Positions 802 through 60,267 of a stretch of 64,000 bases of DNA are shown here, piece by piece. Position 1 is the stretch's first letter; the number at the start of each line of letters is the position of its first letter. The notes below the pieces were generated by a model. The model saw only the letters and a list, made by a program, of their open reading frames with translations. It was not told the origin of the DNA and made no database searches. Both the position numbers and the translations under genes were made by a program. Origin of the DNA: Octopus vulgaris (Eukaryota); assembly GCA_951406725.2 (NCBI GenBank), contig OX597823.1, positions 24,242,001 to 24,306,000 on the forward strand. Direction: 5' to 3'.

Positions 802-972
802 CTCATGCAAATATTAACTGTGGAGCTCCAAAGGAAGTTGTTAGTGCAGTGAAGACCTACAAAACCGCCACCTATAAATCTGAAGTGACCTATACTTGTC
901 CAAAGGGAGAACAACTAAAGTCCTTATGTGAAAAGAACAATAAATGGTCTCCAATGGTAAAAACCTGTAAAG
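802..972 (+). CDS. Exon S1, Sushi/CCP (SCR) domain
   Basis: ttccag|CTCAT...TGTAAAG|gtaatg. Encodes [56 protein letters not shown], matching the CCP pattern C-x2-P...Y-x-C-x2-G...C-x5-W-x6-C. Confidence 0.9.

Positions 973-60267: not shown

Follow-up and report, generated by a model that had tools for sequence, protein, structure and literature searches.

A 349-exon gene model for a predicted giant secreted Sushi-PAN protein in Octopus vulgaris and its probable origin from a short GON-domain gene

Overview

The stretch of Octopus vulgaris DNA considered here, 64,000 nucleotides long and called the window below (C10:24,242,001-24,306,000, contig C10 being OX597823.1), carries a small part of an exon array that is real, intact, much larger than first reported, and undescribed in the literature searched. 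The best explanation, which we place a little above an even chance, is a one-gene locus for a secreted, beads-on-a-string protein of 24,356 residues, whose basic PAN domains would bind anionic glycans and cross-link a gel or cement.

Fifteen Exons in the Window

Positions inside the window are given in its own coordinates. A translated search, with one seed for each exon type (Sushi, S; PAN-A, A; PAN-B, B), recovered fifteen + strand exons between 802 and 60,267, in the place and order (S-A-B-S-A-B-S-S-A-B-S-A-B-S-A) that an earlier note had read from the letters. They are S1 (802..972, a Sushi/CCP exon of 171 nt, exon 170 of the 349 described below), A1 (6704..6943, 240 nt, the first array exon of the O. 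sinensis model XP_036361601.1), B1 (10625..10858, 234 nt), S2 (16774..16944), A2 (19840..20079), B2 (25419..25652), S3 (27845..28015), S4 (32576..32746, the second exon of a double Sushi), A3 (34255..34494), B3 (39163..39396), S5 (44029..44199), A4 (48129..48368), B4 (52844..53077), S6 (55442..55612) and A5 (60028..60267, exon 184 of 349). A pyrimidine-rich AG acceptor and a GT donor in phase 1 flank every one of them (15/15). The domain names are upheld by Pfam: the nine A and B exons all pass the PAN_1 cut-off, and all six S exons match Sushi, five above the cut-off and S4 below it (E 0.018).

The three exon lengths, described as invariant, are so in the window (S 171 nt in 6/6, A 240 nt in 5/5, B 234 nt in 4/4) and cease to be so in the whole array, where exons of one type differ by whole codons (S 165-177, A 234-246, B 201-237 nt). 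The four-cysteine core holds far beyond the window: exactly four cysteines occur in 209 of 210 PAN exons and in 131 of 133 Sushi exons, the other three having five. The claim that the fifteen exons form a single frame likewise stands, as they are exons 170-184 of an open 349-exon model and supply residues ~11,744-12,798 of the modelled protein. The intron flanks are also similar between units, forming repeat families in the window, which indicates that whole exon-plus-intron units were duplicated.

Other features of the introns are remnants resembling Tc1/mariner transposase and LINE reverse transcriptase, recognized by eye at 36,580-37,267, 18,661-19,288, 45,856-46,233 and 49,144-50,853 (-), a perfect 193-nt tandem duplication at 9,636-10,023, and a 63-nt four-copy array inside a dispersed repeat at 12,403-12,660.

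The Giant Array and Its Gene Model

How far does the array extend? When the genome was searched with a single exon of each type, almost every match fell on the + strand of C10 at 23.27-24.98 Mb, and the region C10:23,242,001-25,106,000 (1.864 Mb, no N) was analysed whole. Iterated profiles gave 348 matches in these 1.86 Mb (134 S, 107 A and 107 B), every one on the + strand, and 346 of them are open and have splice sites. The other two are decayed copies, an A at 24,195,908 and a B at 24,207,898, whose omission restores the S-A-B order there; the extra copies in a nucleotide search with all exons were these same two and a 33-nt S fragment (24,574,992). Under neutral mutation to d=0.1, only 32% of such exons stay stop-free, while the model described next has 343 open array exons. 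The uniform strand and the open frames beyond neutral expectation argue that the array is not due to chance.

The model of the giant gene starts with an ATG exon that encodes a hydrophobic stretch (the signal exon, C10:23,362,495-549) and a 30-nt micro-exon (C10:23,363,457-486), continues with 343 array exons (105 A, 105 B and 133 S; C10:23,364,742-24,983,168, +) defined by profiles and splice sites, and closes with four GON and terminal exons (Pfam PF08685) that end at C10:25,003,050. These 349 exons span 1.64 Mb, the array itself 1.62 Mb, and the whole is ~23 times larger than the window. Once joined, they stay open for 73,071 nt up to a lone stop at the end, and the product would have 24,356 aa, 2.75 MDa and pI 8.9. 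All 348 introns of the model are GT-AG and measure from 132 to 19,355 nt (median 4.0 kb). Every A exon directly precedes a B (105/105), with no AA or BB among intact exons, and the units are of four types: SAB (73), SSAB (27), SSSAB (2) and AB (3).

Extending the analysis beyond the window, as had been proposed, thus yielded both ends of the frame, a signal-peptide exon 5' and a GON domain 3', and no membrane segment: outside the signal the highest 19-residue hydropathy is 1.38, and no window exceeds 1.6. Of the secreted or surface scaffold suggested earlier, the secreted alternative is the one that gains from this, the surface-anchored one being unsupported; the signal peptide is called from homology and hydrophobicity. 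The modelled protein has 272 N-glycosylation sequons, 1,388 cysteines (~690 potential disulfides) and three RX(K/R)R sites.

One Short and Probably One Giant Gene

A short paralog lies 68 kb upstream of the giant, at C10:23,269,851-23,294,202. It reads signal-PAN-PAN-Sushi-GON, and its product has 465 aa with the micro-exon and 455 aa without. Its A, B and S exons form a trio at 23.275-23.282 Mb, 82 kb from the remaining array exons. The protein is 84% identical to GON-Abd-1 of Abdopus, including a matching N-terminus; by sequence, GON-Abd-1 and models in both O. bimaculoides and O. sinensis are orthologues of this short gene.

The two genes resemble each other at both ends. Upstream of each there is an ATG signal exon with a hydrophobic stretch and a 30-nt micro-exon, both 72% identical in nucleotides between giant and short gene. 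Downstream, homologous blocks with four exons occur both behind the short-gene trio and after the final array exon; tblastx of these two regions returned repeat noise when unmasked, and repeat masking was needed. Both 3' ends have a GON domain by Pfam PF08685, the giant's being 57% identical to that of the short gene. Signal, micro and GON exons thus occur as one set for the giant and one for the short paralog, and no convincing copy of any of them was found inside the 1.62-Mb array. The homologous ends indicate a locus made of one short and one giant gene, and the want of internal start or end exons argues that the giant is one gene. We consider it highly probable that the 1.64 Mb are a single gene, and we have the same high confidence that all 349 exons are spliced consecutively into a message of ~73 kb. 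The strictly interleaved exon order is what concatenation, and not a choice among cassettes, would be expected to give.

Two candidates for start exons were discarded. One, considered first and located immediately 5' of the short gene, is a dispersed repeat present at least 60 times; the other, a weak signal-like match at C10:24,823,842 (E 0.002, 38 nt), is acceptor-proximal intron sequence of a B exon, the conserved motif not being found in the array. The ends of the two genes also differ in cysteines: the micro-exon encodes two in the giant and one in the short gene, and the giant, as in O. bimaculoides, has a final cysteine that the short gene does not have. These differences may reflect a different disulfide closure or chain-to-chain linking.

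Relatives and Annotated Fragments

A PAN-A profile run against 1.84 billion representatives gave 372 matches at E<=0.001, the best six of which are O. sinensis, O. bimaculoides and O. vulgaris models with PAN and Sushi, named "uncharacterized" or "hypothetical". The Sushi profile, run on 158 collected proteins, had 15 matches, namely Octopus models, one unnamed fragment and three GON-family proteins. Among the database proteins searched, the giant was found only in Octopus and its repeated unit has homologues only there, which bears out the proposal of a lineage-specific, multivalent Sushi-PAN-PAN scaffold.

The annotated proteins found are fragments of the giant, the largest having 4,470 and 4,283 aa. 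O. sinensis XP_036361601.1 joins 36 consecutive array exons, among them 14 of the 15 window exons (98-100%), and in O. bimaculoides XP_014770611.2 the final 11 array exons (83-93%) run on into the GON domain (86%). Such agreement in exon choice and order supports the chaining of exons, these annotations being predictions in which the array is split and exons are skipped. Fragments from the middle of the array of O. bimaculoides do not align in sequence order, and this points to expansions that took place separately in each lineage.

The name SVEP1, borne by two fragments, was rejected: vWA, EGF and pentraxin domains are absent, the credible matches of P0008 are only PAN and Sushi, and P0151, the second fragment, maps to S, A and B exons alone.

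Outside Octopus, the cuttlefish GON-Sep-2 combines Sushi and GON behind a hydrophobic N-terminus, and a Patella protein has PAN and GON plus a weak Sushi-like match; together they show the small architecture to be old in molluscs. A GON tree of 10 rows, with a long branch for Patella, joins the two giant ends (100/100) and separates them from the short ones, and the giant and short GON lineages are already separate in O. bimaculoides. An Argonauta protein (P0019) has four PAN domains and neither Sushi nor GON, and a weak search found no long homologue of it. The annelid Dimorphilus gyrociliatus has long proteins (P0007, P0009) in which ~20 PAN domains are combined with SUEL lectin domains, and which are PAN arrays of a separate architecture.

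No account of the giant gene was found in the literature searched, also by locus and accession identifiers, subscription papers lying largely outside that body. The available text of PMC13252362, PMC12607849, PMC7656900, PMC12259195, PMC4280546, PMC11525497, PMC7333891, PMC12691039 and bioRxiv 2026.04.09.716377 has no mention of the protein.

Unit Divergence and Origin

The units of the array have a mean pairwise identity of 46-58%, with a few pairs 95-99% identical. Unit-to-unit identity peaks at lags 4, 8 and 12, and 14 of the 28 spacings between multi-Sushi units are four, which makes a four-unit super-repeat. Among paralogous exons, dN/dS is 0.43-0.95 over 15 bins and above 1 in none (Nei-Gojobori, pairs not independent), and that of PAN-A reaches 0.75-0.86 in the bins above 5% divergence. 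With the cysteines fixed, the fold stays constant and the surface diverges. Values this high are laxer than a structural fibre under tight constraint should show, which counts against the best explanation.

The origin of the gene is the part of the reconstruction that we hold with the greatest confidence, as very likely. A signal-PAN-PAN-Sushi-GON gene would have been duplicated, and the three middle exons of one copy then amplified ~105 times by unequal crossing-over, a process that would have run for a long stretch as a four-unit block.

Transcripts and Proteomes

One contig, from a run (X3) that is only guessed to be RNA, crosses exons of the window. It is 258 nt long, with a depth of 3.65 and no mismatches, and runs out of S6 at its donor (55,612) and into A5 at an internal AG (60,200), leaves A5 at the predicted donor at 60,267, and carries 119 further letters. 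The contig supports the use of two predicted donors, those of S6 and A5. Its junction is off the model: the cryptic acceptor keeps 67 nt of A5 and shifts the frame. Of the 8 joints listed for four runs over 43,900-60,400, no other is a GT..AG junction. In that interval the array exons are mostly uncovered and the contigs lie mostly on intronic repeats, and these runs have no bearing on expression. A search of sequencing runs with a 606-nt stretch near the 3' end had no RNA run among the matches listed, and no full-length or long-range transcript of the giant was seen in the run searches.

As for proteins, the accessible part of Table S1 of PMC7693380 has at row 1238 a group from the O. vulgaris posterior salivary gland, detected by mass spectrometry with 18 peptides and 43% coverage, which includes R4G2C1 and A0A0L8GSV1, the family of the short gene. 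Among the entries listed in that supplement there are 0 matches for A0A0L8HQP4, the C-terminal accession of the giant in O. bimaculoides. The skin-mucus supplement of O. vulgaris (PMC10138644) likewise has, among the entries listed, 0 matches for identifiers or terms and for four array motifs.

Fold, Charge, and Proposed Mechanism

The domains differ in charge, the mean net values being +7.4 for PAN-A, +2.7 for Sushi and -0.6 for PAN-B, with 13.9% lysine. An AlphaFold2 model of a B-S-A-B homologue (P0010), from an alignment of 12 rows, has a mean pLDDT of 82 and a pTM of 0.54, consistent with separately folded domains whose relative placement is uncertain. In Foldseek, apple domains of factor XI and prekallikrein rank first for this model, with a whole-chain rmsd of ~25 A, and single PAN domains of HGF and plasminogen match at 2-3 A. 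Against apple domains of factor XI and prekallikrein and the N domain of HGF, the rmsd is ~3 A over ~80 residues. The matches include NK1-heparin entries and parasite microneme lectins. The N domain of HGF binds heparin.

What could such a chain do? The product would be secreted as one chain, in which the Sushi modules would act as spacers between PAN pairs; by analogy with the HGF N domain, the avidity of 105 basic PAN pairs would bind anionic glycans, and binding along a chain extended to ~1 micrometre, as estimated from known domain sizes, would cross-link a secreted gel or cement. To our judgement this scaffold mechanism is as apt to be wrong as right. The same balance applies to its molecular detail, in which each exon would be one disulfide-closed domain, the Sushi domains spacers in a chain of ~1 micrometre, and the 105 PAN pairs the binding sites for sulfated or acidic glycans. 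Our guess for the GON end, made by analogy, is that it helps export from the ER or caps the chain, and candidate secretions, also guessed, are egg-string cement, skin or sucker mucus, and a salivary matrix.

The most specific version of this proposal would make the giant a polycation of micrometre length that cross-links sulfated polysaccharide in some octopus secretion, egg-string cement for instance. It would be a single 2.75-MDa chain from 349 exons, among the largest secreted proteins, derived from a 465-residue salivary-gland GON protein whose middle was amplified ~105-fold. We offer it tentatively, and would sooner expect some part of it to fail.

Alternative Explanations

Could the array be an artefact of assembly, or a repeat expansion with no function? 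Tandem arrays are prone to mis-assembly and a few unit pairs are nearly identical, but the mean pairwise identity is only 46-58%, the region has no N, orthologous exons are colinear in O. sinensis and O. bimaculoides, and the open frames and invariant cysteines go far beyond neutral expectation; we find this reading scarcely credible. A cluster of several genes, whose start and stop exons would be unrelated to those of the GON family, is improbable, if less extremely so. It would suit the separate loci in the annotations of three Octopus species, and no transcript seen links distant parts of the array. Yet both splice sites are kept in all 343 intact exons, there is no gap >19.4 kb and no internal copy of a signal, micro or GON exon, and each annotated fragment that was inspected starts part-way through a domain or in sequence derived from an intron, the ends being of the same sort except in the 3'-terminal models.

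A rival to be taken more seriously accepts a single gene and has it produce many shorter isoforms of variable length and specificity, the full 24,356-aa form being rare or absent. All 343 array exons are symmetric (phase 1-1), so that skipping any set of them keeps the frame; moreover, the units are divergent with a high dN/dS, the one observed junction is off the model, and Dumpy, the closest giant analogue, is alternatively spliced according to the available text of PMC2930355. Against it stand the strict interleaving of exon types, the mere two decayed exons among 345 in the array, and annotated models that run through long consecutive stretches of exons. We regard these isoforms as unlikely, but as the strongest of the rivals. 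Rather less likely is one giant secreted protein that serves as a diversified recognition or defence net, either a pathogen agglutinin or a prey-directed salivary component. Sushi modules are typical of complement-type proteins, the PAN structural matches include parasite microneme lectins, and PAN-A dN/dS is elevated, but no bin exceeds 1, there is no catalytic or known toxin domain, and a 2.7-MDa chain would fit a matrix better than a diffusing effector. The salivary gland proteome speaks on both sides, as the family of the short paralog is present in it and A0A0L8HQP4 is absent among the entries listed (accessible part of PMC7693380).

Comparison with Known Systems

Judged by its sequence, the giant is a member, in an extreme variant, of the coleoid PAN/Sushi-GON family of GON-Abd-1 and GON-Sep-2 (UniRef R4G2C1 and R4FJA6, and A0A0L8GSV1 of O. 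bimaculoides), whose GON-Abd and GON-Sep names reportedly come from Ruder et al. 2013. With the adjacent short paralog it shares the signal, micro, PAN-A, PAN-B, Sushi and GON parts and their introns; the difference is one of number, with one PAN-PAN-Sushi unit in the 465-aa short form and 105 in the 24,356-aa giant.

The giant shares the PAN fold of its A and B exons with the apple domains of factor XI and prekallikrein, the HGF N domain and apicomplexan microneme PAN lectins, and its basic PAN surface recalls the heparin-binding N domain of HGF. In contrast to the apple-domain proteins, it has no protease or kringle, and its PAN pairs are linear and split by Sushi instead of forming a four-apple disc. 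Apple domains of the factor XI type have a third disulfide, hence six cysteines, while 209 of 210 PAN exons of the giant have four, and the rmsd to the disc is ~25 A.

Titin and nebulin are intracellular proteins encoded by hundreds of one-domain exons with a higher-order super-repeat. The giant is alike in both respects, its period being four units, and unlike them it has a signal peptide and ~690 potential disulfides. A Dscam-type array of mutually exclusive exons was rejected, the exon order being interleaved and not clustered by type.

What the octopus giant most likely works like is Dumpy of Drosophila, a huge extracellular protein made largely of the three-module repeat EGF-DPY-EGF (accessible text of PMC2930355). 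Both are giant extracellular chains of three modules, with no homology claimed, and the giant differs in having no EGF or DPY, no ZP domain and no transmembrane anchor, and 349 exons, each array exon encoding one domain, as against the 78 coding exons of Dumpy. The ZP domain known from Dumpy and from PAN-ZP matrix proteins was looked for specifically: the frame ends after GON, and a weak PF00100 search of 11 candidates gave one match, on another contig.

The C-terminal GON domain is common, by Pfam, to the giant and to ADAMTS9, ADAMTS20 and GON-1. An ADAMTS identity was rejected: the model has only signal, micro, S, A, B and GON exons and no metalloprotease, disintegrin or TSP1, nor is there such a Pfam match in P0152. 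The database name "ADAMTS20-like" of a 3' fragment stems from GON alone. In ADAMTS9 and GON-1, this domain promotes ER-to-Golgi transport independently of protease activity (accessible text of PMC3338439), and the giant is a natural test of what GON does outside ADAMTS proteases.

Significance and Neighbouring Loci

Should the modelled frame be in use, the locus would be a gene of titin scale whose secreted product is represented in three octopus annotations by unnamed or misnamed fragments only. It would also show a small gland protein turned into a giant modular fibre by duplication of exon triplets and blocks, with the ancestor-like gene still adjacent. The giant is a concrete candidate for the secreted materials of octopuses, egg cement or mucus for example, and it raises questions of its own: how is a transcript of 1.6 Mb and 349 exons spliced, and how is a disulfide-rich chain of 2.7 MDa exported?

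Other genes share the locus. Exons of the 51-kDa subunit of NADH dehydrogenase (complex I), one of them matching Pfam Complex1_51K, lie between the short and the giant gene at C10 ~23,309,900-23,327,700. Beyond the giant, more + strand candidate exons of a further gene, including a Ser/Pro-rich one of 424 nt, are found at C10:25,005,785-25,044,313, and the many exons at C10 ~25,078,000-25,105,000 presumably belong to a CACHD1-like gene with vWA and cache domains, Pfam giving no match for the one exon tested. Elsewhere in the genome there are weak PAN matches and a third GON locus, probably an ADAMTS9-type gene, the positions being C13:19.93-19.98 Mb and 76.17 Mb, C17:26.5-26.6 Mb and C1:49.33 Mb.
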